Assembly: GCA_018826075.1 (NCBI GenBank) | Contig: JAHKAJ010000025.1 | Span: 37,608 to 101,607, forward strand | DNA: 64,000 nt | Source of the DNA: Candidatus Omnitrophota bacterium | GTDB taxonomy: Bacteria; Omnitrophota; Gorgyraeia; Duberdicusellales; 4484-171 | Direction: 5' to 3' | Shown here: piece after piece, positions 2,577 to 60,137 of the stretch | Layout of the letters: every line of letters starts with the position of its first letter | How positions within the stretch are numbered: position 1 is the stretch's first letter | The notes under the pieces: generated by a model | The model's database searches: none | Told to the model about the DNA's origin: nothing | The model's input: only the letters and a program-made list of their open reading frames with translations | Position numbers and translations under genes: made by a program

Positions 2577-4121
2577 CTAAAGCCTTAAAATTTGGGCCCA
2601 ATAGGCTTTGAGGGGATTTTCGAAAATCACCTGCCAACGGGAAACCAAAGGCAGTTTTATTAATTTGGCCGGTTTTAATAGCTTTTTTTGGCTAAAATCA
2701 TGATATTCTGAAAGGCTGAGGCTTTGAATAAATACTTTATGCTTCTTTCCCTTTAAAACAAACCCTTGAGGGATGACTTTGAGTTCATACCCATTTACCT
2801 GTAAAAAGAAAGCTAAACTGTAGGTGTTGACTGAAAGTAAATAGTTTTCCGGAACTGCTTCTTTAAGGCCGACAATTACAAAATCTGATTCAGAGTTTGA
2901 AACTAGTTCAGCTAACCCTTGGGAAAAAGCCAAAGCATCCTGCCAATAAGGCTTTTGGTTGGAGCTGCTCACCTGCTGATAGCCCTTCCAGTAGGCGCCA
3001 AAAAATCTTGGGCCGTCATGAGTATGGGCATAAGCCGGGTTTCTGGTAATCCGTAGATAAGGAAACTTACCTTCCGGTTCAAGTGAAAAAAATTGAACTA
3101 AGATACTAAAAATAACCACAGCATAGGCCGATCTTTTAAAATTGAGTTTTAATCTTTTAGCTAACGGCCTCTGGCTAAAATCTAAAATCGCCGCCAACAA
3201 GACAAACGGCCCCAGGCAAATAGCGGCAAGCAAATGATGCCCGGATACCAGCCGGCCGAAAACCGGATAAAATAATATACCGGCTGGAATAATCACCAGC
3301 AGGCGCTTAAAGTCCTTTTTGGCTAAAGATTCTCCAAAGTAAACACAAGCGTATATACTTAAAAAAAACCAAACCGCTATGTTGGTGGCAGTAAACAAAA
3401 TATTCAAAGAATTAATCTGGCTCTCAGCCAAAGACCCGTTCAGTAAAAGATGGGATTTGTAATATGCTAGAATTTGCAGTGGTTTAAAAATTCCCGAAAA
3501 AATCGCCGCGGCCAAAATAAAAAAACTTCCTAAAGAAAAAGCAATTATCGAACGCCGGGAACGAGCTTTAAAAATTATAATAAAAAAAAGGGCCGGGATA
3601 CCCAGCAAAAAATCAAACCTGAAAAAACAGGCTAAAACAGCTAAGCTTCCGGCAAGGAAATATTTAGTATTCTTGCTGGAAACTATAGCTTGAGGTGAAT
3701 TTTTCCAAAACAAAATTAGTACTGCCAAGGAAAAAATAACCATGCCAAAAACGCTGGAATTAGGGTAAAGCAAACGGAAGAAGATCTCAGGAAACAATAA
3801 CAAAAAACAGAAACTAAAAAACAAATTTATTCTTCTGTTTGAGGCTTGATAAACCGAAAAGGTAAGCAAACATACTGCCAAGGCTCCCAATAAAGCCGGC
3901 AACAGATATAAAAAATACGGCAGGCCGCTAATCCGATAAACTAAATAGTTGACTTCGTAGGCCAGGGGCTGGTAATAGTAGCTATAAAGGAAAAACTCCC
4001 CAGCCTTGGCTTGAGCGAGATTGACTGAACCGGCCAAGATAGCTACCCCGTCAGGCTCATACCAGCCCCGGTCGCCAAAGGAAATCCCCCAAACTGCCAA
4101 AAGGCAATAAAGCAAGACCAA
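2577..4121 (-). CDS. polytopic membrane protein, GT-C/PMT-like glycosyltransferase candidate
   Basis: More than 10 predicted TM helices and Tyr/Phe-rich loops. The general architecture resembles ArnT/PMT-type glycosyltransferases, but no definitive motif was found. Confidence 0.35.
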   Translation of the reverse strand: MVLLYCLLAVWGISFGDRGWYEPDGVAILAGSVNLAQAKAGEFFLYSYYYQPLAYEVNYLVYRISGLPYFLYLLPALLGALAVCLLTFSVYQASNRRINLFFSFCFLLLFPEIFFRLLYPNSSVFGMVIFSLAVLILFWKNSPQAIVSSKNTKYFLAGSLAVLACFFRFDFLLGIPALFFIIIFKARSRRSIIAFSLGSFFILAAAIFSGIFKPLQILAYYKSHLLLNGSLAESQINSLNILFTATNIAVWFFLSIYACVYFGESLAKKDFKRLLVIIPAGILFYPVFGRLVSGHHLLAAICLGPFVLLAAILDFSQRPLAKRLKLNFKRSAYAVVIFSILVQFFSLEPEGKFPYLRITRNPAYAHTHDGPRFFGAYWKGYQQVSSSNQKPYWQDALAFSQGLAELVSNSESDFVIVGLKEAVPENYLLSVNTYSLAFFLQVNGYELKVIPQGFVLKGKKHKVFIQSLSLSEYHDFSQKKLLKPAKLIKLPLVSRWQVIFENPLKAYWAQILRL

Positions 4122-4171
4122 CCCGATCAGGGGATTCTTGAAAATTTTTAAGATTTGAAAAAAATAATTAC

Positions 4172-4618
4172 TTATTCTGATTGCTTATACACCCTGTCAT
4201 TCTCATGAACCGGCTTGATCACCTTAATACCTATTTCAAGACCCTTCTTGGCAGTAGAAATAGATTCATGCTCATATTGCATAGATTGAATGCTTTGGCT
4301 AAAATCATCATGAGCACCTTTTATATGGATCTTGTCTCCAACTTTCAAGGCAGTTTTAACCTTGATTATCCCTACCTGGATCTTTCCGAAGTAGTGAGTA
4401 ACAATACCAACTTCCCTCTCCTTGAGCTTAGCCGGAACAATCTTTACCGGCCGGGATTTCTTTTTTACTGATTTGATCTTTTTGCTAACTTTTTTGGCCG
4501 GCTTGGTTTTAGATTTTTTAACGGTTTTCTTTGCCGGTTTGGCCTTAGTTTTTTTAACCTTCGGCTTTTTAGAACTTTTACGATTTACTGACTTTTTCCA
4601 AAGCTTTACCAACGTCAT
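4172..4618 (-). CDS. lysine-rich (histone H1-like) N-terminus fused to an EF-Tu domain-2-like beta-barrel; hypothetical
   Basis: Residues 10-60 are a K/P/A-rich repeat (KKPKVKKTKAKPAKK...). The C-terminal GIVTHYFGKIQVGIIKVKTALKVGDKIHIKG...GLEIGIKV resembles the translation-factor beta-barrel pattern. Confidence 0.35.
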   Translation of the reverse strand: MTLVKLWKKSVNRKSSKKPKVKKTKAKPAKKTVKKSKTKPAKKVSKKIKSVKKKSRPVKIVPAKLKEREVGIVTHYFGKIQVGIIKVKTALKVGDKIHIKGAHDDFSQSIQSMQYEHESISTAKKGLEIGIKVIKPVHENDRVYKQSE

Positions 4619-12554: not shown

Positions 12555-12716
12555 GGGGACAGGTCCCACTAGAATAGCCCTAATGTTTTCAAGTATTTTT
12601 AGGTCTTTTTTCAATTTTCTAAAATCTCCTAAGATTACCTTCTCATTTTCGATTTTCAGAAAAACCAGCAAATAATCCTTTATTTTATTGGGGTGATTTG
12701 ACTGGGACCTGTCCCC
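12555..12716. mobile_element. 162-bp MITE-like element, copy 1 (perfect 13-bp TIR GGGGACAGGTCCC)
   Basis: The left end GGGGACAGGTCCCAC and right end GGGACCTGTCCCC are exact reverse complements. A second 162-bp copy, roughly 70% identical by eye, lies at 45649-45810. Confidence 0.6.
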
Positions 12717-14176
12717 AATAGGTCTTTGCTGAAGATATTATCCAGGCCCAAAAGGCATTGGGGATCAAAATACTTCTTCAAAGCTGCCATTTGGTTGATC
12801 TCATCCTGACTATACATAATCTCTAAATAAGCTTTTTTCAGCTTACCGATTCCGTGTTCAGCTGATACTGTCCCGCCTAAGGAAACTGCCAGGCGGCAAA
12901 GTTCCTTAAGATAGCTTTTAGCCAGCTGACTCTGAGAATTGGTTTGCGGTAAAAAATTAAAATGAAGGTGTGATTCACCGATATGGCCAAAATTAAGATA
13001 ACTTAACTTTGCCTCTTGAGAAACTTTTCGGTAATACTGATGCATCTGCTTAAAATTACTTTCGGGAACAGCGATATCTGCAGCAGCCTTAACCTGTTTG
13101 GCCCGGCGTAAAAACTCATTGATCAGCTGGGGTAATTTATGCCTTATCTGATATACCTTCTCTCGTTCTTTAGCGGTTTCGGCGAAAATAGATTGATCAA
13201 GGAAAGCGCCGCTGGTTTCAATTAAACCCTGCCATTTATCGACTAGCGCGTCATACTCCTCTTTATTTTCTGCTTCCTGTTCAAAATAAACTGTGCCTCC
13301 GGCTTTTGGCATGAAAGAATATTCACGGCGCAAAAGATTTAATGAATTCTGATCTAGAAATTCTAGGGCAGCCGGATTCTGTAGGGGCGCAAAATTTTGC
13401 GCCCCTACTTTAATTCTTTCTGTAAATTGCAGGGCTTCTTCTTCCTGAGGGAAAAACAGCAAACCGTCAAAAACTCCAAAAGGGATATTTTGCAAAGCTA
13501 ATTCCAGGGAGCTGATTATACCCAAAGTCCCTTCGGAACCGATAAAAAGATCGATTAAATCCATATTGTCCCTTACAAAATACCCGGCCTGGGATTTACA
13601 GGCCGGAAGATGATAATCAGGGAGTTTAAAATCAAACTGACGGCCGGCGATCTTAAAGTTAAAAACTCTTTTTTGGGAAAAAATCTCACCCCGCCGCAAA
13701 TGAATTGCTTCTCCGGAAGAAAGGAAAATCTCAACTGCCCTGATGTAATTTCGTATCCCTCCCCAGCCAAAACCATGCACCCCTGAGGCAGCAGTTGAAG
13801 CTACGCCGCCGGCTAAAGCCAAAGGTTCGGTAGGTAAAGATCTTAGCGTTAACTTATGTTTTCTTGCTTCTTTTTCCAAATCTTGAAGCGAAACTCCAGC
13901 TTCTAGCTTAGCAGTTTTAGCCTCGGGATCGATCTGGATATTGTCCTTTAAGCCTTCTAAAGATATGATCGCCCCTTCCTGCGGAACACAACCTCCGGTA
14001 GTCCCGGTTCTTCCGCCCGAAGCAGTAAAAGGGATGTTTTTTTTAGAAAGCTCCCGGATTATCGCTAAAAGTTCTTCCTGATTTTGTGGTATATATAAAG
14101 CTGAAGCCGCCCCCTGACGATTAGAAGTATCCTCTAAGTAAGTAAGCAGATCTTTCTGGTTGGTTTTGGAGATCAT
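12680..14176 (-). CDS. FAD-binding oxidoreductase (GlcD / D-lactate dehydrogenase-like)
   Basis: FAD_binding_4-type glycine-rich motif SGGRTGTTGG. The last 12 codons and the stop are supplied by the MITE-like element. Confidence 0.75.
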   Translation of the reverse strand: MISKTNQKDLLTYLEDTSNRQGAASALYIPQNQEELLAIIRELSKKNIPFTASGGRTGTTGGCVPQEGAIISLEGLKDNIQIDPEAKTAKLEAGVSLQDLEKEARKHKLTLRSLPTEPLALAGGVASTAASGVHGFGWGGIRNYIRAVEIFLSSGEAIHLRRGEIFSQKRVFNFKIAGRQFDFKLPDYHLPACKSQAGYFVRDNMDLIDLFIGSEGTLGIISSLELALQNIPFGVFDGLLFFPQEEEALQFTERIKVGAQNFAPLQNPAALEFLDQNSLNLLRREYSFMPKAGGTVYFEQEAENKEEYDALVDKWQGLIETSGAFLDQSIFAETAKEREKVYQIRHKLPQLINEFLRRAKQVKAAADIAVPESNFKQMHQYYRKVSQEAKLSYLNFGHIGESHLHFNFLPQTNSQSQLAKSYLKELCRLAVSLGGTVSAEHGIGKLKKAYLEIMYSQDEINQMAALKKYFDPQCLLGLDNIFSKDLLGTGPSQITPIK

Positions 14177-45648: not shown

Positions 45649-45810
45649 GGGGACAGGTCCCACTTTATAAACCTAATGTTTTCAATGCTTTTCTGACCAT
45701 TTTTTCAAATTCCTGAAATCTTTCTTTTTCCTCTAAGCATTTTTGATTTTTAAAAAATACAGCAAATAGCGTTTGATTTTACTGGGCTAATTTGACCGGG
45801 ACCTGTCCCC
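45649..45810. mobile_element. 162-bp MITE-like element, copy 2 (perfect 13-bp TIR GGGGACAGGTCCC)
   Basis: Same length and termini as copy 1, with internal identity roughly 70% by eye. It is preceded by an 18-bp perfect palindrome AAAAAGGTCGACCTTTTT (45631-45648) and ends 2 nt before the mazG stop codon. Confidence 0.6.
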
Positions 45811-45812
45811 GA

Positions 45813-46487
45813 TTAAAAATAGGTGGATTTTTTGGCCTGCTTTAAGATGGCCCGGCGGGTCCTGGTTTCCAGGTTGATTCCTTTACGATGGGCAATATTA
45901 GCTAAATCAATAACTATACCGCACAATAATTTCTCACTATTTTTACTTTTTTCCAAAGCTTTGACTTTAGCCTTTAAATCAACATAGGGTTTCTGACAGC
46001 TGGTTTTTTTAAAGTTTTCACCCTGCAAATAAGAAAGCTCTTTAAAAAAAATATCGGCTAAAAGTAAAGACGGTGCGGCTTGAGCCAAACGGTCTTTGAT
46101 CGAACGGCGTTTTTTCTGCTTGGCTTTACTGTTGACCCAATGCTTTAAAACTTCCTCTTTGTTGTTAAGCTTTTTTTTGCCAAAAACATGGGGATGGCGA
46201 GAGATCAACTTATGGTTTATGGTTTTAAATACTTCTTTAAGATCAAAGTTTCCTTTCTGGCGAAACATCTCGGTAATAACCACCAGAATCAAAAAAATAT
46301 CGCCCAGCTCCTCCTTGACTGACTTTAGCTGTTTCTTATCAATGGCATCGATAAGCTCATAGACTTCTTCCAGGAGGAAATTCTCCATGTTTTTAATCTT
46401 CTGGGCCCGGTCCCAGGGGCATCCCTTCGGCGAACGCAAAACTCTTACGGTTTTTAGAAGCTGGTTAAATTCTTTCATTTTTAGCAA
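45813..46487 (-). CDS. mazG: MazG-family nucleoside triphosphate pyrophosphohydrolase
   Basis: EEVYELIDAI...ELGDIFLILV is the MazG EExxE/D-rich catalytic helix pair. Confidence 0.8.
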   Translation of the reverse strand: MLKMKEFNQLLKTVRVLRSPKGCPWDRAQKIKNMENFLLEEVYELIDAIDKKQLKSVKEELGDIFLILVVITEMFRQKGNFDLKEVFKTINHKLISRHPHVFGKKKLNNKEEVLKHWVNSKAKQKKRRSIKDRLAQAAPSLLLADIFFKELSYLQGENFKKTSCQKPYVDLKAKVKALEKSKNSEKLLCGIVIDLANIAHRKGINLETRTRRAILKQAKKSTYF

Positions 46488-46518
46488 AGGTCCGGCTGAT
46501 TAGTTTGTTTTATTGCCT

Positions 46519-47076
46519 CTAACAGCCATGATTAATTAGGTAGACAAAGACATCTGAGTCGTAACGAAAAAGGCCTTTGTTTTCCCCGGCAGGATCATTA
46601 CCGTCTATGATTTTGTCTATTTTCTCTCCTAATGCTTGAAACGCAGTCGTACCCATATCCGTATCGGTTATCCGGAAAACTACGTTGACTCCGGTTTCTA
46701 TATCACCACCATCAATAAAGCAATCGCCCTCATTGTCGTATCCGTAGGGTGCACCCCAAGGATTAGGAATCGCGGCTTCAATATAAGGTCCATCCCATCC
46801 AGGTAAGTTAAGTACATTTTGTGCTACATCGGTATTCTCTATAGTCATAAGATTAGATCCGTAATCAGGGTTAGGCGCAGCGCCCTCTGTTGGAAACTTA
46901 CCCACATCAGTATAAAGAGAGAGAAAGGCAGTTCTAATAGTTTTGAAATCGCTCACTATCCGCGAAACCTTCGCCTTTTCAATAGCCTTAAAGGCATTGG
47001 GGGCGATGATAGCGGCAAGAATGGCGATGATAGCGATGACTACGATCAATTCGATTAAAGTAAATGTTTTTTTCAT
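46519..47076 (-). CDS. type IV pilin-like protein (isolated)
   Basis: MKKTFTLIELIVVIAIIAILAAIIAP is a canonical prepilin N-terminus. Start trimmed to 47076. Confidence 0.65.
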   Translation of the reverse strand: MKKTFTLIELIVVIAIIAILAAIIAPNAFKAIEKAKVSRIVSDFKTIRTAFLSLYTDVGKFPTEGAAPNPDYGSNLMTIENTDVAQNVLNLPGWDGPYIEAAIPNPWGAPYGYDNEGDCFIDGGDIETGVNVVFRITDTDMGTTAFQALGEKIDKIIDGNDPAGENKGLFRYDSDVFVYLINHGC

Positions 47077-47168
47077 ATTAATTATTTTACCACATCTAAC
47101 GTCGTGCATAAGTGGCCAAGCGAAAGAGAGGTCCAAGCCGCGAACTCGATGCGCTTGTTAGCCTGTTG

Positions 47169-47426
47169 CTATGGCTCAAGCTCAACTGTTTCGCCTTCGA
47201 TAAATTTCTTTCGGTCATCACCATTTTCTAAATAAAAACAGAATATATCTAAATCAGGGCTACCATCTTTCTTCAATGCCCTTGGTTGCGAAATAGACCT
47301 TTTTATCGGGCACCCCCCGAGAGTCGGGGAATTCCCAAGCTCAATATTATATTCTTCAAGTTGCCTTACAAATATCCCAGTAGGCTTGCCTTCCAATACA
47401 TATTCGACTGTAAATTTGTATTTCAT
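47169..47426 (-). CDS. hypothetical small protein
   Basis: 85 aa with no recognisable motif. Shares an upstream leader motif with its neighbours. Confidence 0.3.
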   Translation of the reverse strand: MKYKFTVEYVLEGKPTGIFVRQLEEYNIELGNSPTLGGCPIKRSISQPRALKKDGSPDLDIFCFYLENGDDRKKFIEGETVELEP

Positions 47427-47568
47427 TTTTTTTATTAAGCTAACACAAAAATCAGCTGTCAGCCGAGCCAGCTATATTCGACAGCGAGGATGGTCGGCTG
47501 GATGGAGTTGCTTTTCTCATTCGTTCAATGCCCAATAGTTAAATTTTCTCACTCAAGAATCAACAGAA

Positions 47569-48096
47569 TCACTTAGTTGAAGAAATAAACTCAAGAGTTT
47601 CAAAACTCTTTTCAACCAAAGGGAGAAGCTGCGCAAATTCTTCTTTACCAGCTGAAAAGGTTACAACGATTTGCTTATTGTTTTTGAAAAATTGTATTTG
47701 CATATCCTTTCCATGCAAATTAGACGATGTAGACTTTATTGCCTCGAATCCGTTAAAATTAATGATTTCTACGGTGAGATATCCTGGCTGTCGCTTCATC
47801 GTTTCAACCATGTCTTTGAGGACGTCTATTTCCTTGCGGCTTGAAAAAATGATATCGTAACCCCCCGTTAAAAATACAAACCCTAAGAATGCTGATGAAT
47901 CAATATTCTCGGGTGAGAAATTAAGAATCGTATCGTGATCAAAATCTATGGTCTTCCATCCCTGCGGTGGAATAAATTTTATAGTTTCCGTGCCCATTAG
48001 GTAAATCCCATCAACAGCGGGTTCTTGCATGCTTTGTGCAAAACAAAAAGTACAAACTATTAAAGACATGAATAGAAAAGTAAAGCTTTTCTTCAT
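47569..48096 (-). CDS. hypothetical secreted protein
   Basis: Signal peptide MKKSFTFLFMSLIVCTFCFA. RBS GGAGGC upstream of ATG 48096. Confidence 0.4.
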   Translation of the reverse strand: MKKSFTFLFMSLIVCTFCFAQSMQEPAVDGIYLMGTETIKFIPPQGWKTIDFDHDTILNFSPENIDSSAFLGFVFLTGGYDIIFSSRKEIDVLKDMVETMKRQPGYLTVEIINFNGFEAIKSTSSNLHGKDMQIQFFKNNKQIVVTFSAGKEEFAQLLPLVEKSFETLEFISSTK

Positions 48097-48181
48097 TAAG
48101 CCTCCTTTTTTTATTTTTTCATCTAACACAAAAATCAGTCGACCGACCAAACGAGAAAGTGCGCTAGGAGTATCAAGTGGA

Positions 48182-48628
48182 TTACTTTATTATAAGTTTT
48201 TTTATTCTTAGAAGGTAAATAAATAATCCCAGCGCCACAATATTTACGCCGATTGACCACGGATTTTTAGAAAGAATAAAAAAAGAAAATTCAGCCCCTA
48301 ATTTAAAAAATATGCTGATGCGATTAAATGCTATCTCGGGAGTTAGATGAAAACCAGAAACAAAAAAATAAGTTACAATTGGCGATGATAACTTTACAAT
48401 TTGAATTCCTTGATAAACAATGGACAGTTTAATCCCGGTTTTTTGATCTTCAATAAGGCACAGTCCAGAGAAAACCCCGAATAAAAAAAACAATGCGAAC
48501 AATATAGAAACGAGAATATAAATAAGCTGCATTTGAGAGGAAAATAAAGCTGAAAGTATAATTACAAACCCTGTAAAACCTCCGCCAATCTCAAAAACAA
48601 TCAATAATCTTTTTATCCATTTATTCAT
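48182..48628 (-). CDS. hypothetical membrane protein (4 TM)
   Basis: Hydropathy pattern only. Confidence 0.35.
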   Translation of the reverse strand: MNKWIKRLLIVFEIGGGFTGFVIILSALFSSQMQLIYILVSILFALFFLFGVFSGLCLIEDQKTGIKLSIVYQGIQIVKLSSPIVTYFFVSGFHLTPEIAFNRISIFFKLGAEFSFFILSKNPWSIGVNIVALGLFIYLLRIKKLIIK

Positions 48629-48752
48629 TTATTCCTCCTTATTTTTATTCTATTACTTATAGCAATTAGTAGACGACAGCTATGCTTTCTGTGATTTATA
48701 AAGTTTATAGGTAAATTATACCACTTTTTTAAGGTTTTTCATGTTGATTGCT

Positions 48753-49328
48753 TTATTTAAAATGTAATATGTCTTTAAGCGGCCTTTTGGGAACGTGCAG
48801 ACGGCCTTTTTTGTCCAGCCAATACTTAACCTTTTTGGAATCAGTTTCCAACTTGGGTTTTTCGTCCGAATAGCCGCAGGCGATCAATGAATCAATCAAA
48901 TAAATTTTAGGGATCTTGAAAATCTTTCTTAAGGCCTCTTTGTCAATACTGGCAATCCAGCAGGAGCCAATGCCTTCAGCCAATAATGACAAGATGATGT
49001 TTTCAGCAGCTGCTCCCACATCACGCAAGTCAGGATTCGGGGATTTTTTCTGGTTAGCTAAAATAATGATGTAAGCTGTGGGTCGTTTTCCCAGCGGCGG
49101 CATCCGCTTAGGATACAAATATCCGGCCCAGCGAGTCAAAGGAAATATCTTTTGGCATGGCTTTGGTTTATTTACTGCCAGGTATTCGATGAATTGCAAG
49201 TTTGCCGCTGAAGGCGCCAGGCGTCCGGCATTCACCGCCCGCTTTATCGCTGCTAAGGAAACTGGTCTTTGTTTAAACAGCCTGATCGAGCGGCGGGTGG
49301 TTATTAGTTTTTGTAGTTGGTTTTGCAT
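48753..49328 (-). CDS. nitroreductase family protein
   Basis: TRRSIRLF...APSAANLQ match nitroreductase FMN-binding motifs. Confidence 0.75.
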   Translation of the reverse strand: MQNQLQKLITTRRSIRLFKQRPVSLAAIKRAVNAGRLAPSAANLQFIEYLAVNKPKPCQKIFPLTRWAGYLYPKRMPPLGKRPTAYIIILANQKKSPNPDLRDVGAAAENIILSLLAEGIGSCWIASIDKEALRKIFKIPKIYLIDSLIACGYSDEKPKLETDSKKVKYWLDKKGRLHVPKRPLKDILHFK

Positions 49329-56355: not shown

Positions 56356-57576
56356 TTAACTAGACAATCTTTTCTTTACGCTTTCAATGTGTTTATTCAT
56401 CCCTTCCAGGCCGGCTATTTTTTCCAAAACCGCCACTTCATCCAGGAGAGCTTTTTTAGTATAGCTGATCACGTGCACCTCTTTTAAAAACTCCCGCACT
56501 GAAAGGCAGGAAAAAAAACGGGCGGTCCCGGCAGTCGGCAAAACATGGCTTGGCCCGGCAGTATAATCACCCAAAGAAACCGGGCTGCTCTCACCCAAAA
56601 ATATCGCTCCGGCATTTCTTATTTTTTTCACCAGGGCTGACGGTTTTCTGGTCAAAATCTCCAAGTGTTCGGGGGCAATCCGGTTTACTGCTTCACAGCC
56701 GGCGTCTAAATTCTTAACCAGCAAAATAAAACCTGGAGTTTTACGCCCGCGCATTTCCATAACTATTTTTTTGGAATTAGTAACCAGAATGCCCAAACCG
56801 CTGCGGTGTTCGATCTGGGCCTCTAAATCAGCCGCTATATAATCGGGATTGGCATCCTTGGAAGCTAAAATCACGATTTCTGAAGGCCCGGCTAACATAT
56901 CAATATCAACTTCGCCGAAAACCTGCCTCTTAGCTTCAGTGACAAATTCATTGCCCGGCCCGATTATCTTATCTACCCTTTTGATCGTCTTGGTACCAAA
57001 AGCAAAAGCAGCTATAGCCTGAGCTCCTCCTACGCGGTAGATCTCCTTGATCTTAAGCAGGGAAGCCATAGCCAGGATAAAAGGGTCTAAATTCTTATCT
57101 TTGCCCGGAGGCGAAGCCAAGACTATTTCTTTAGTCCCGGCCACTATCGCCGGGATTACTGCCATATAGACCGAAGACACTAAAGGCGCTGTTCCGGCCG
57201 GAACATAGACCCCGACTCGTTCCAGCGGCACATAACGACTAAGCAAGGTTTTACCGTTTGAGTCTTTTACCCTGGTAGCTTTAGGGATTTGACGGCGGTA
57301 AAACTTAGTAACATTATCAATAGCTAATTTAAAAGCCGAAATGATCGAAGAGTCCAACTCGTTAAAGGCTGCGCTGATCTCGGTTTCGCTGATCCTTAAG
57401 TCTTTTTGGGATATCTTTACCTTATCGAACTTGCGGGTATATTCCAAAAGAGCGCTATCGCCGCTATCGCGGACATTCCTGATGATTTTTGCCACCCGCT
57501 CATTGACCTTATCTTTACGCAGGCGTTTTTTTCCCAGCAACTTTTCCAAACTGTCTAGATTTCTTACTACTCTCAT
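56356..57576 (-). CDS. hisD: histidinol dehydrogenase
   Basis: HisD family. 406 aa with conserved GPGNxxV and metal-binding His residues. Confidence 0.9.
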   Translation of the reverse strand: MRVVRNLDSLEKLLGKKRLRKDKVNERVAKIIRNVRDSGDSALLEYTRKFDKVKISQKDLRISETEISAAFNELDSSIISAFKLAIDNVTKFYRRQIPKATRVKDSNGKTLLSRYVPLERVGVYVPAGTAPLVSSVYMAVIPAIVAGTKEIVLASPPGKDKNLDPFILAMASLLKIKEIYRVGGAQAIAAFAFGTKTIKRVDKIIGPGNEFVTEAKRQVFGEVDIDMLAGPSEIVILASKDANPDYIAADLEAQIEHRSGLGILVTNSKKIVMEMRGRKTPGFILLVKNLDAGCEAVNRIAPEHLEILTRKPSALVKKIRNAGAIFLGESSPVSLGDYTAGPSHVLPTAGTARFFSCLSVREFLKEVHVISYTKKALLDEVAVLEKIAGLEGMNKHIESVKKRLSS

Positions 57577-60137
57577 AATTTTATAAATTGGTTAAGGGCT
57601 TCTTTTAATTGTTTCAAAAAGCCGTCGCCCCGATTATCTATCGACCCTTGAACTATTTTATCACTTCCTCCACCTCTTAGGGATAATTTTTCTCCAAACT
57701 CAAAAATTAGCTTGCGGCAACTAAAACCCTTGTTGACCAAATCATCTCCGGCTGAGCAAATAAAAATATCTTTACCCTCAACCTTTCTGACCAAAAAGAT
57801 AACTGCCAATTTTATTTTTTGCTTCAGGCTATCTGACAATTTAAGCATAATTTCTTTCTCTTCTTTAATCGAAGACGAACTAACTTCAGTGAAAAGATAT
57901 AAAAAATTAACCCCCTTTATGGCTTCCGGCGCCTTGGATAAAAGCTTCTCTTTCTCTTGATTAACCACCTGGCTGATTTTTGTTTTGTCAGGCTTCTTAG
58001 ACTCTTTCGAGCGCTCTTTCAGCTCCTCTTCCCGGCTCCTGCGAATCTCCCTAACTGCTTGCGCCTTCTTAGCTACCGAGGCTTTAATCCTTCTAATCCC
58101 GCTACTTATCGAAGACTCTGATTCGATCTCAAAATCTTCTATTTCGGCGGTATTGTCAATATGTGTGCCGCCGCATAACTCTTTACTATAGTCAGAAACC
58201 GACACTACTCTTACCCTATCCTGATACTTATCTTTAAAAAAAGCTAAGGCTCCTTCTTTTTTGGCTTGTTGAAGCTTAAGTTCTTTTTTCTCAACCTTAT
58301 CGCCGGCTTTAATAAATTTCCTGACTAAATCTCCTATTTTTTTTCTTTGCTCATCGGTTAATCGGTTAAAGTGTGTAAAATCAAAACGAAAGTTATCTTC
58401 ATCAACCAATGAACCCTGTTGAACAACGTGATCACCTAAAACCTGGCGTAAGGCAGCCTGCAAGAGATGAGTTGCGGTATGTGCCCGTGCTAAAGCCTTT
58501 CGTCTTTTGACGTCGACAATAGCCAAAGCAGCACCTTCTTCTATTTTCCCCTTAGTTACCTTACCTTTATGGACAGTAGCTTGGTTAACTTTAAAAACTC
58601 CTTCAACCTGAAATTCGCCCTGGCTTGATTTAATAATACCCTTATCTGAAAGCTGACCTCCGGCCTCAGGATAGAAGGGAGTCTTATCTAGAACAACCAA
58701 GGTTTCCTCGCCTGAAAAAACACGCTCTATAGTAACTGAAGCTTCTGTGAACTGGTAACCGAGGAATTCGGTTTCTTCGGTTAAATTTAATTCTCCTTTC
58801 TTAAATATGTTTTCATCAAACATGCTTTTCTTGCGGGAACGCTCCTGTTGCTGCTCAAGCAAAAGGTTAAAACCATTTTCATCTATTTTTAAATCCGAGG
58901 CTTTAGCCATTTCTTTAGTAAGCTCAAGCGGCAATCCGTAGGTATCATAAAAACGAAATAAATCTTCGGCGGCTACTGTGTTTTTATCTTTCGCTTTTAG
59001 GCGTTCGGATATTGAAAAAAATTGACGTTTACCCTCTTCTAAGGTCGAAAGAAACTTACCCTCTTCGGCTCGGATAACCTTAGCAATGGTATCGCTTTTA
59101 GCTATAAGCTCTGGGTAAGCATCTTTCATAGCTTCAATAACGCTAGTAGATAAATTATAAAGAAAAGCCTCTTTCTTCCCTAAAAGATTAGCACTCCAGA
59201 GAGCTTTGCGAATAATCTTCCTAATCACATAGCCTCTATCTTCATTTGAAGGATAGACACCGTCAGCAATTGCAAAAGTCGCTGCCCGAACGTGATCAAC
59301 AATGGCACAGATTAAACTCATTGTTCTTTGATCTTGGTTATCGATATTGATAAGCTTTCCTGCAGCTTTGACTATCGGCGCTAAAATATCAATTTCGAAA
59401 TTAGAATTTTTGCCTTGCAAGACGCAAGCCATCCTCTCAAGACCCATACCAGTATCAATATTATTTTGAGGTAAAGGCTCTAATTCATTCTTCCCGATTC
59501 GATTGAACTGAGTAAAAACCAAATTCCAGACTTCAACAAATCGGCCGCAGCTGCAATCAGGATTACAACTCCTCTTGCGGCAGCCGATATCCTTACCCCG
59601 ATCAAAGAATATCTCTGAACAAGGACCGCAAGGCCCGTTAGGGCCTTCTAAAGGAGCATTAGCCGGCCAAAAATTACTCTTCTCCCCCAACTTAACGATT
59701 TTATTTTTATCCAGGCCGATATCTTTCTCCCAGATCTGGTAAGCTTCGCAATCTTTGCGGTACACTGAAACCCATAGATCCTTTTCGGACAGCTTTAACT
59801 CTTGAGTCAGAAATTCCCAGGCAAATTCGATCGTCTCTTTTTTAAAATAATCGCCGAAGGAAAAATTGCCAAGCATCTCAAAAAAAGTATGGTGATAAGG
59901 AGTTTTACCTACATTCTCTAAATCACCGGTGCGCAAACACTTCTGACAACTGGTTGCCCGAGCTACTTCTTTTTTTTCACCTAAAAAGTAAGGTTTAAAC
60001 TGGTTCATTCCGGCCGAAGTAAAAAGAACCGAAGGATCATCAGGGACTAAGCTATCCGAAGGAAAAACTTTGTGGGCTTTAGCCTTAAAAAAATCCAGGT
60101 ATATTTTTCGTAATTGATCGGTCTTAGCTTCTAACAT
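57573..60137 (-). CDS. alaS: alanine--tRNA ligase
   Basis: FTSAGMNQFKPYFLG class II motif, HxxxH editing domain and a C-terminal DHHA1 domain. 854 aa. Confidence 0.95.
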   Translation of the reverse strand: MLEAKTDQLRKIYLDFFKAKAHKVFPSDSLVPDDPSVLFTSAGMNQFKPYFLGEKKEVARATSCQKCLRTGDLENVGKTPYHHTFFEMLGNFSFGDYFKKETIEFAWEFLTQELKLSEKDLWVSVYRKDCEAYQIWEKDIGLDKNKIVKLGEKSNFWPANAPLEGPNGPCGPCSEIFFDRGKDIGCRKRSCNPDCSCGRFVEVWNLVFTQFNRIGKNELEPLPQNNIDTGMGLERMACVLQGKNSNFEIDILAPIVKAAGKLINIDNQDQRTMSLICAIVDHVRAATFAIADGVYPSNEDRGYVIRKIIRKALWSANLLGKKEAFLYNLSTSVIEAMKDAYPELIAKSDTIAKVIRAEEGKFLSTLEEGKRQFFSISERLKAKDKNTVAAEDLFRFYDTYGLPLELTKEMAKASDLKIDENGFNLLLEQQQERSRKKSMFDENIFKKGELNLTEETEFLGYQFTEASVTIERVFSGEETLVVLDKTPFYPEAGGQLSDKGIIKSSQGEFQVEGVFKVNQATVHKGKVTKGKIEEGAALAIVDVKRRKALARAHTATHLLQAALRQVLGDHVVQQGSLVDEDNFRFDFTHFNRLTDEQRKKIGDLVRKFIKAGDKVEKKELKLQQAKKEGALAFFKDKYQDRVRVVSVSDYSKELCGGTHIDNTAEIEDFEIESESSISSGIRRIKASVAKKAQAVREIRRSREEELKERSKESKKPDKTKISQVVNQEKEKLLSKAPEAIKGVNFLYLFTEVSSSSIKEEKEIMLKLSDSLKQKIKLAVIFLVRKVEGKDIFICSAGDDLVNKGFSCRKLIFEFGEKLSLRGGGSDKIVQGSIDNRGDGFLKQLKEALNQFIKL

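Follow-up and report, generated by a model that had tools for sequence, protein, structure and literature searches.

A block of about 2.27 kb in the genome of a Candidatus Omnitrophota bacterium is best explained, with a probability of roughly 0.85, as a short chromosomal array of integron-type gene cassettes that has no integrase nearby and was inserted between a nitroreductase gene and mazG. The block occupies positions 46479–48752 of a 64-kb stretch (assembly GCA_018826075.1, contig JAHKAJ010000025.1, 37,608–101,607 of the forward strand), which was analysed as a whole and is hereafter called the window. Two sites in the block belong to a family of integron recombination sites (attC) found in several phyla, the block is missing from the same place in three related lineages, one of its genes recurs in another genome with a homology breakpoint exactly where integron integrases (IntI) cut, and the window holds no integrase gene. 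The initial annotation, made from the letters of the DNA, described the four minus-strand open reading frames (ORFs) of the block correctly and attributed a 16-nt motif repeated upstream of them to a shared promoter, operator or 5′ untranslated region (UTR). It also placed the block downstream of mazG. The order of transcription, entirely on the minus strand, is nitroreductase, a protein with four transmembrane segments (4-TM), a signal-peptide protein, an 85-aa protein, a prepilin-type protein and mazG, and in that direction the block lies upstream of mazG. The features are as follows.

46479–48752, minus strand: inserted block of ~2.27 kb, with 4 cassette-type genes and attC sites, from the nitroreductase stop codon to the mazG start codon
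48182–48628, minus strand: first gene, 148-aa 4-TM protein of an uncharacterised family (ORF list)
48121–48195, minus strand: attC site C, 75 nt (covariance models and 5′-half matrix)
47569–48096, minus strand: second gene, 175-aa signal-peptide protein, an ORFan (ORF list)
47438–47516, minus strand: attC site B, 79 nt (covariance models and 5′-half matrix)
47169–47426, minus strand: third gene, 85-aa cytosolic protein (ORF list)
47094–47163, minus strand: site A, probable divergent or decayed attC, 70 nt (core arrangement and 5′-half rank 25)
46519–47076, minus strand: fourth gene, 185-aa prepilin-type (GspG-like pseudopilin) protein (ORF list, Pfam/NCBIfam)
46490–46513, minus strand: orphan attC 5′ half (5′-half matrix rank 2)
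48715–48742, minus strand: promoter-like site in the leader of the first cassette (consensus scan)
48738–48761, minus strand: weak stretch resembling an attC 5′ half, which covers both the nitroreductase stop codon and the insert's left edge (5′-half matrix rank 44; uncertain)
48753–49328, minus strand: nitroreductase, flanking core gene outside the element (Pfam PF00881; synteny in relatives)
45813–46478, minus strand: mazG, flanking core gene outside the element (Pfam PF03819; orthologues at 68–82% identity directly after nitroreductase)

The motif at the centre of the earlier reading is a 16-mer, CTAACACAAAAATCAG on the plus strand and CTGATTTTTGTGTTAG on the coding strand, where the form of the motif is CTGATTTTTGTGTTAG(A/C)T. 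Its two annotated occurrences, at 47440–47455 and 48123–48138, are exact, with no other copy in the window at 0–2 mismatches; at up to 3 mismatches there are 6 matches against 0.81 expected, a number reached in 0/100 shuffles. Around both copies the similarity widens to a 30-nt direct repeat (87% identity) with a start-to-start spacing of 683 nt. The motif is just the 3′ end of a 70–79-nt element whose 5′ end lies at or just after the stop codon of the preceding gene, and it is the L′-spacer-R′ end (…CTGATTTTTGT|GTTAGMT) of integron attC sites, with the spacer TTTGT and the R′ core GTTAGMT. Rfam, which has no attC family, gave only tRNAs for the window and no match at the motif.

An early hint of this identity lay in homologues of the 85-aa protein (see below). 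A scan for the 16-mer in a genome collection with one genome per species gave at least 120 loci with an exact match (numbered with the prefix L), most of them chance occurrences inside genes. Among the matches listed, the 16-mer forms the 3′ end of a 54–86-nt imperfect palindrome at 20 loci, in metagenome-assembled genomes (MAGs) labelled Omnitrophota (L016, L026, L027, L028, L034, L042, L073, L116, L131), Desulfobacterota/Syntrophus (L066, L084, L087), Planctomycetia (L051, L118, L123), Anaerolineae (L037) and Pseudomonadota (L024) or unclassified (L030, L035, L095). The family consensus is YTAAC-AAAGC-AAT-C-CAGCGG-A-(variable hairpin)-CCGCTG-ATT-TTTGT-GTTAGRY, followed a few bases on by a ribosome-binding site and ATG. 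Each site is thus laid out with inverted R″ and R′ cores (for example, GCCCAAC...GTTAGGC in L037, with AAC/GTT invariant in 30/31 sites), then unpaired spacers of 5 nt, an L-box segment of 3 bp, a stem between a bulged C and a bulged A, whose positions are fixed, and a variable end; the lengths fall within the ~50–150 nt of attC sites. The canonical attC_aadA7 reads TCTAAC-AATTC-GTT-C-AAGCC...GGCTT-AAC-TCAAGC-GTTAGAT, and we take the family layout to match it position for position, with the same R′ heptamer GTTAGAT.

Two covariance models were built from sites in other genomes, R1 from 17 sites and the broader R2 from 31. R1 finds additional sites without an exact 16-mer in the same loci, where they form same-strand arrays of 2–4 sites spaced 0.5–1.2 kb apart. 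In the 31-site alignment, which was itself fitted to the model, 85.8% of cells pair compared with 29–51% when the partners are slid, and 10/17 pairs show changes on both sides (CAGCGG/CCGCTG, CAGCCG/CGGCTG, CAGGTA/TACCTG, CACTTG/CAAGTG and CACCTG/CAGGTG, for example); the observed values were reached in 0/500 shuffles. Loci L030 and L087 encode proteins 45–48% identical to IntI1, which score 404 and 473 bits, respectively, against the NCBIfam model TIGR02249 ‘integron integrase’ (cutoff 265) and lie within ~3 kb of attC sites bearing the 16-mer. On the strength of their sequence and predicted pairing, we regard the 16-mer-bearing palindromes as a genuine attC family, because the canonical layout, the covarying structure, the arrays and the adjoining TIGR02249 integrases all agree. 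The spacers (AAAGC/TTTGT) and L arms (AATCCAGCGGAC/CCGCTGATT) are unusually conserved within the family, hence the identity of the 16-mer across phyla. The two integrase loci differ in arrangement: in L087, a Syntrophus MAG, the integrase gene (3492–4457) is on the same strand as and upstream of attC sites at 2817–2873 and 465–521, an ‘inverted integrase’ arrangement, and in L030 it is divergent from the array.

With the filters off, R1 and R2 match the window only at sites C and B, the next best matches scoring 11–14 bits. Both sites align to the model end to end and keep both bulged positions. Site C scores 44.5 bits with R1 (E = 4e-9) and 43 bits with R2 (E = 3e-9) and reads R″ TTATAAT-AAAGT-AAT-C-CACTTG-A ... 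CGACTG-ATT-TTTGT-R′ GTTAGAT, with the crossover G|TT between 48127 and 48126. Site B scores 32.3 bits with R1 (E = 6e-6) and 35.7 bits with R2 (E = 3e-7) and reads ...AGCAAC-TCC-AT-C-CAGCCG-A-CC (variable hairpin) ...CAGCTG-ATT-TTTGT-R′ GTTAGCT, with the crossover between 47444 and 47443; its hairpin folds on both strands and it is ~70% identical, variable region included, to the attC at L095:730–811. When the three intergenic regions were folded, only B was convincing, and A and C were not, site C having no stable hairpin (minimum free energy −0.7 kcal/mol, z +2). This at first seemed contrary to an attC identity, until the covariance model exposed the 5′ half of site C (TTATAATAAAGTAATCCACTTGA), which overlaps the stop codon of the 4-TM gene. 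A weak attC-model match at 57897–57990 on the plus strand (10.5–12.7 bits, E 0.8–3.5), which holds GCTGATTTTTGTTTTGT and lies inside an 854-aa ORF (57573–60137), is most likely due to chance.

The 5′ halves provide a second line of evidence, from a matrix built on the 24-nt 5′ halves of sites in other genomes and independent of the 16-mer. Of 127,954 positions in the window, those ranked first to third were 48195–48172 (site C), 46513–46490 and 47516–47493 (site B), all three on the coding strand and at or just after stop codons. The second of these is an orphan 5′ half, which reads ATAAAAC-AAACT-AAT-C-AGCCGG-A-C and starts 5 nt past the stop codon of the pilin-like gene. Site A ranks 25th. 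It reads R″ GGCTAAC-AAGCG-CAT-C-... ...-ATG-CACGAC-R′ GTTAGAT and is the sole place in the window with the arrangement CTAAC-N5-XYZ...Z′Y′X′-N5/6-GTTAG; as ~0.39 such arrangements are expected per window, the value of site A lies in its position and not in the count. The R′ core is GTTAGAT in C and A and GTTAGCT in B (6/7 to GTTRRRY), and the R″ core is degenerate, being TTATAAT in C, AAAAGC/AGCAAC in B and GGCTAAC in A (6/7 to RYYYAAC). A shortened third copy of the motif had been reported at 47093–47130, upstream of the pilin-like gene, but this 3′ half of site A shares only GTTAGAT(G) with the other copies and scores at background on the family 3′-half matrix (rank 1322). The fifth stretch, 48738–48761 on the minus strand, ranks 44th and reads TTTAAAT-AAAGC-AAT-C-AACATG-A; its TTTTAAnTAA portion belongs to the ancestral nitroreductase sequence, the search for a 3′ half upstream of the 4-TM gene gave nothing, and the stretch may hint at the way in which the segment came in or may be coincidental. 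Taken along the block, each ORF is followed by an attC site or part of one.

Several observations weigh against this interpretation. Site C is partly decayed, with the R″ AAC mutated to AAT and an L-box pairing of 4/6, and R″ and the adjoining spacer of site B are degenerate. Site A is detected by neither family model and folds poorly (z +1.3), and the 3′-half matrix finds no 3′ half, nor the covariance models a full match, between the pilin-like gene and the start of mazG. At the edges of the block, the left junction has no G|TTRRRY and the right junction no complete attC. No intI was seen in the 8-kb segments covered around the Omnitrophota loci of the family, and the integrases found beside these attC sites are in non-Omnitrophota or unclassified MAGs only. 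The window sites were called with the family-specific models R1 and R2 instead of the attc_4.cm model of IntegronFinder, and since R1 and R2 were trained on sites selected by the 16-mer, the score of the 3′ half is partly circular. That circularity is mitigated by the independent 5′-half matrix and by a control set of 100 loci (732 kb) containing the 16-mer by chance, in which R2 reports no match at the 16-mer.

Evidence of cassette mobility comes from the 85-aa gene, which has just 4 homologue clusters in 5.8 billion proteins. A homologue 80% identical occurs in another genome (L011) between unrelated genes, where a GCTAAC...GTTAGCT hairpin that folds strongly (z = −3.5) lies ahead of it. Upstream of GTTAGCT, the identity between the window and L011 is at background; from GTTAGCT through the leader and the ORF it is ~77%, and it ends at the stop codon. 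Integron integrases cut at G|TTRRRY, and a homology breakpoint there is the signature of an integron cassette boundary; the L011 breakpoint at G|TT is accordingly such a boundary. A 52% homologue (L013) lies in a classic cassette array of small ORFs separated by ~100-nt imperfect palindromes that start with GCCTAAC and end with GTTAGGC or GTTAGCC, and two more homologues lie between other small ORFs. The L011 locus has two further repeats of its own. An ~80-nt element with a perfect 16-bp stem (GGGGTCAGTGTAAAAA...TTTTTACACTGACCCC) is present in three copies (~994–1080, 2376–2455 and 2672–2760), one after each of three consecutive small ORFs (those of the 85-aa homologue and of an ankyrin-repeat protein, and a short one); these elements are not attC-like, having neither bulges nor a GTTRRRY core. 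At ~3540–3660, a tandem array of ~27-nt units (CCACTAGTGGGGGAGGAAAGGGCGGGT) lies beside ilvD.

The 4-TM, signal-peptide and 85-aa proteins have no curated match in Pfam or NCBIfam, the 4-TM and signal-peptide proteins none in PADLOC or PHROGs, and none of the four matches defence-system models. The 4-TM family comprises 596 cluster representatives at E ≤ 1e-3, with no Pfam domain in the 7 representatives tested, and a search of the signal-peptide protein against the 5.8 billion proteins returned only itself. Integron cassettes typically carry such ORFan or uncharacterised genes. The AlphaFold2 model of the 85-aa protein is a small beta-barrel (predicted local distance difference test score 89.5) with no match in the Protein Data Bank at E < 0.7. 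The 185-aa protein matches Pfam T2SSG (1.3e-5, 25.6 bits, cutoff 21) and N_methyl and is above the cutoff of TIGR02532 (22.7 bits, cutoff 16.3), while its match to the GspG equivalog TIGR01710 (2.5e-16, 59.9 bits) is below the cutoff of 88.85; it is thus pilin-like but not assignable as GspG. It had been called a lone pilin-like gene, yet the window holds five further prepilin-type ORFs (xFTLIELLV...) on the minus strand at ~15370, 15836, 25008, 25819 and 28677, probably in type IV pilus or type II secretion system-like clusters, and the cassette gene is therefore not the only pilin gene of the genome. No pilin-like cassette was found in the other loci of the attC family.

That the block is an insertion follows from three related lineages (L134, L136 and L138), in which the nitroreductase gene directly abuts mazG (85-nt gap, 4-nt overlap and 5-nt gap, respectively). 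Their MazG orthologues are 82, 79 and 68% identical, and the synteny shared with the window comprises his genes, rplM-rpsI, ribBA-ribH-nusB, PHP, ribD and nitroreductase on one side and mazG, PilZ, UvrD-like and PDDEXK genes on the other. No attC was found at the empty site of these relatives. The GC content of the block (37.3%, compared with 42.3% for the window) is in the lowest 0.8% of same-size windows and is heterogeneous between cassettes (30–43%, with 30% in the 4-TM gene), as expected for pieces acquired independently. The initial annotation had suggested an accessory block, which its absence from the site in three lineages, its low GC content and the lack of a curated family for 3/4 proteins bear out. 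One of the relatives, L136, shares its assembly (CAZNWL01) with L051, a different contig bearing an array of two attC sites with the identical 16-mer, and this attC type hence circulates in the lineage.

The surroundings of mazG vary in other respects. An intergenic repeat of ~145 nt (74–80% identity) at 12574–12719 and 45667–45813, initially described as resembling a miniature inverted-repeat transposable element (MITE), fills with its second copy the spacer between mazG and the PilZ gene. In L134, the closest relative without the insert, a 208-aa pilin-like gene (L134:7724–8350, also L135:4821–5447) stands between mazG and the PilZ gene, at the place of this repeat, and its product matches the window pilin at 48% identity in the N-terminal 113 aa. 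Around mazG, genes of the pilin-like type seem to be gained and lost.

We weighed four other explanations of the motif and the block. A promoter, operator or 5′-UTR element that co-regulates the three downstream genes as one module would account for the adjacency of the genes on one strand, for the position of the motif, whose end is 24, 11 and 17 nt upstream of the start codons of the secreted, 85-aa and pilin-like genes, and for the loose resemblance of TGTGTTAGAT to an extended −10. A consensus scan, however, placed no sigma-70-like promoter at the motifs, the sole good one being upstream of the first gene, and the interval between the TTGG-like ‘−35’ and the ‘−10’ is not constant (14, 18 and 22 nt), so that a sigma-70 or sigma-54 reading of the motif was rejected. 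Moreover, the motif terminates a longer palindrome on the 3′ side, and the 5′ end of that palindrome adjoins the stop codon before it; other phyla have the element too, in cassette arrays and next to integron integrases; and the 85-aa gene elsewhere retains only the part downstream of G|TT. This explanation is very improbable. The co-regulated module that had been proposed with it (a secreted factor and immunity pair using a pilin carrier) is likewise not supported, and the 85-aa gene has wholly different neighbours elsewhere; what overturns the module is the attC identity of the motif, and not the motif proving to be a generic promoter element or the genes proving to be core genes. Least probable of all is a non-integron repeat family, whether MITE, repetitive extragenic palindrome or bacterial interspersed mosaic element-like, or a local duplication of an intergenic leader. 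Short imperfect intergenic palindromes are indeed what such families look like, and another MITE-like repeat is present in the window, but only two copies occur in 64 kb, both within the inserted block and without terminal inverted repeats or target duplications, and three features are specific to integron cassettes, namely the link with IntI, the ordering of sites in same-strand arrays and the G|TT breakpoint. The flanking ORFs are mutually unrelated, so that a tandem duplication does not apply either.

An alternative that is easier to entertain, though still unlikely, is that the elements act mainly, or double, as intrinsic terminators or attenuators. On the mRNA the GC-rich L-box/variable hairpin is followed by AUUUUUGUGUU, the family consensus puts a GC-rich stem directly before the T-rich spacer, the family hairpin followed by ATTTTTGTGTT resembles an intrinsic terminator, and a scan calls one (TCGGCTGACAGCTGA + TTTTTGTGTT) inside site B. 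Effects of attC sites on the expression of downstream cassettes are established. Site C, on the other hand, retains the 16-mer without a stable hairpin, and the R″/R′ cores, bulged bases and 5-nt unpaired spacers are features of a recombination site and not of a terminator. A terminator role is compatible with attC identity and does not exclude it. Doubtful, though the most plausible of the four, is a live satellite array, which an intI elsewhere in the genome could still excise and reshuffle. In sites B and C the R′ GTTAGMT is retained, as are both bulged positions and the greater part of the L box, the MAG of a close relative has the same attC type, and attC-site clusters without an integron-integrase (CALINs) that can be mobilised in trans have been described (PMC4889954). 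Set against this, C and B have each lost the R″ AAC, which is the most conserved triplet, the last attC has no 3′ half and site A is degenerate; furthermore, the species is represented by ten independent assemblies that agree at ≥99.9% identity and in gene order, with no reshuffling, although this carries little information.

A CALIN is defined operationally as at least 2 same-strand attC sites <4 kb apart with no intI or intI pseudogene nearby (4–10 kb) (PMC4889954). The block is a CALIN by this definition, because sites C and B share the minus strand at a distance of 683 nt and no intI or intI pseudogene was found in the whole window (tblastn with IntI1 and the IntI proteins of L030 and L087, E < 1). 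It is not a complete integron, as the syntenic nitroreductase gene adjoins the first cassette and the window has no intI. In common with described CALINs, it is a small array of cassettes of unknown function on a chromosome without insertion sequences nearby; it differs in that its attC sites are visibly decayed or truncated and were found by a family-specific model and not that of IntegronFinder, and the RefSeq surveys consulted did not cover the phylum Omnitrophota. The family layout shares with the canonical attC sites of mobile integrons, which IntI recombines as a folded bottom strand, the 7-nt R″ and R′ cores (RYYYAAC/GTTRRRY), 5- and 5–6-nt unpaired spacers, 3-bp L-box segment, bulged C and bulged A (G and T, respectively, on the bottom strand), stem and variable terminal loop, but classical attC sites share little sequence, whereas the spacers and L arms of this family are conserved. 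Sedentary chromosomal integrons such as those of Vibrio (V. cholerae repeats) and Xanthomonas likewise have attC sites alike within an array or lineage and small, mostly ORFan cassettes that include secreted and membrane proteins, whereas the window has no integrase, attI or long array, only four cassettes in a housekeeping operon.

Insertion of cassettes by IntI at non-att genomic sites has been documented, and small CALINs have been suggested to arise in this way (Loot et al., bioRxiv 10.1101/2022.09.11.507474). The block resembles such insertions at secondary (attG) sites, and single attC sites lacking integron-integrases (SALINs), in having cassettes outside an integron platform, in an AT-rich intergenic spot and oriented with a resident operon able to express them. 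It differs in having no left G|TTRRRY and no right complete attC ending in G. With the junctions as they are, a simple IntI insertion at an attG site does not explain the ends, and we rejected this route in its simple form. The ends may have eroded, or the segment may have arrived by another route such as illegitimate recombination.

We propose that in this array each small ORF would be a separate cassette followed by its attC or an attC remnant. Because the integrase cuts between the G and the TT of R′, every cassette would start with TTAGMT and a short leader of its own, and the motif is consequently found just upstream of the next ORF. The cassette of the signal-peptide gene then runs from 48126 to 47444 (683 nt) and that of the 85-aa gene from 47443 to 47100 (344 nt). 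Judged from the sequences, the cassettes were probably once mobilised by an IntI, and they appear to be largely fixed now, since mutations have hit the R″ cores, one site has diverged and the last is truncated. They are oriented as the surrounding operon, which in relatives couples nitroreductase and mazG tightly, making expression by read-through from the rib/nitroreductase operon plausible; the promoter-like site at 48742–48715 (ATGAAA-16-TATAAT with an extended −10 TG, a consensus match only, at 10/12 positions plus TG) may contribute in addition or instead. More speculatively, the loss of hairpins from C, A and the final site might have brought an advantage by keeping mazG expressed. A broader scenario, which we consider rather unlikely as a whole, would have a distinct, unusually sequence-conserved attC class (...AAAGCAATCCAGCGGAC...CCGCTGATTTTTGTGTTAGRY) spanning Omnitrophota, Desulfobacterota, Planctomycetia-labelled and Anaerolineae MAGs reflect one pool of cassettes and one IntI clade common to communities of anoxic groundwater and sediment, with hairpin and U-tract serving as a terminator at every cassette end. 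The window would then hold a natural integrase-less insertion of a four-cassette segment, pilin-like cassette included, in a housekeeping operon, and hairpin erosion would have been selected for read-through to mazG.

These results replace a speculative regulatory module with a concrete mechanism, that of four integron cassettes acquired independently, whose adjacency for that reason implies no shared function; the four proteins are probably functionally unrelated. A CALIN is a known kind of element, previously unannotated here, and not a new kind of system, and the residual interest lies in the attC family conserved across phyla, the comparison of empty and filled sites and the pilin-like cassette. 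With its working covariance model, the sequence-conserved family offers a means of detecting further arrays. In the literature collection searched, no paper joined integrons and attC with Omnitrophica, and the block documents integron cassette traffic in this little-studied, largely uncultured phylum. As a clean example of an empty and a filled site within a conserved operon, it also bears on how cassettes spread outside integron platforms.

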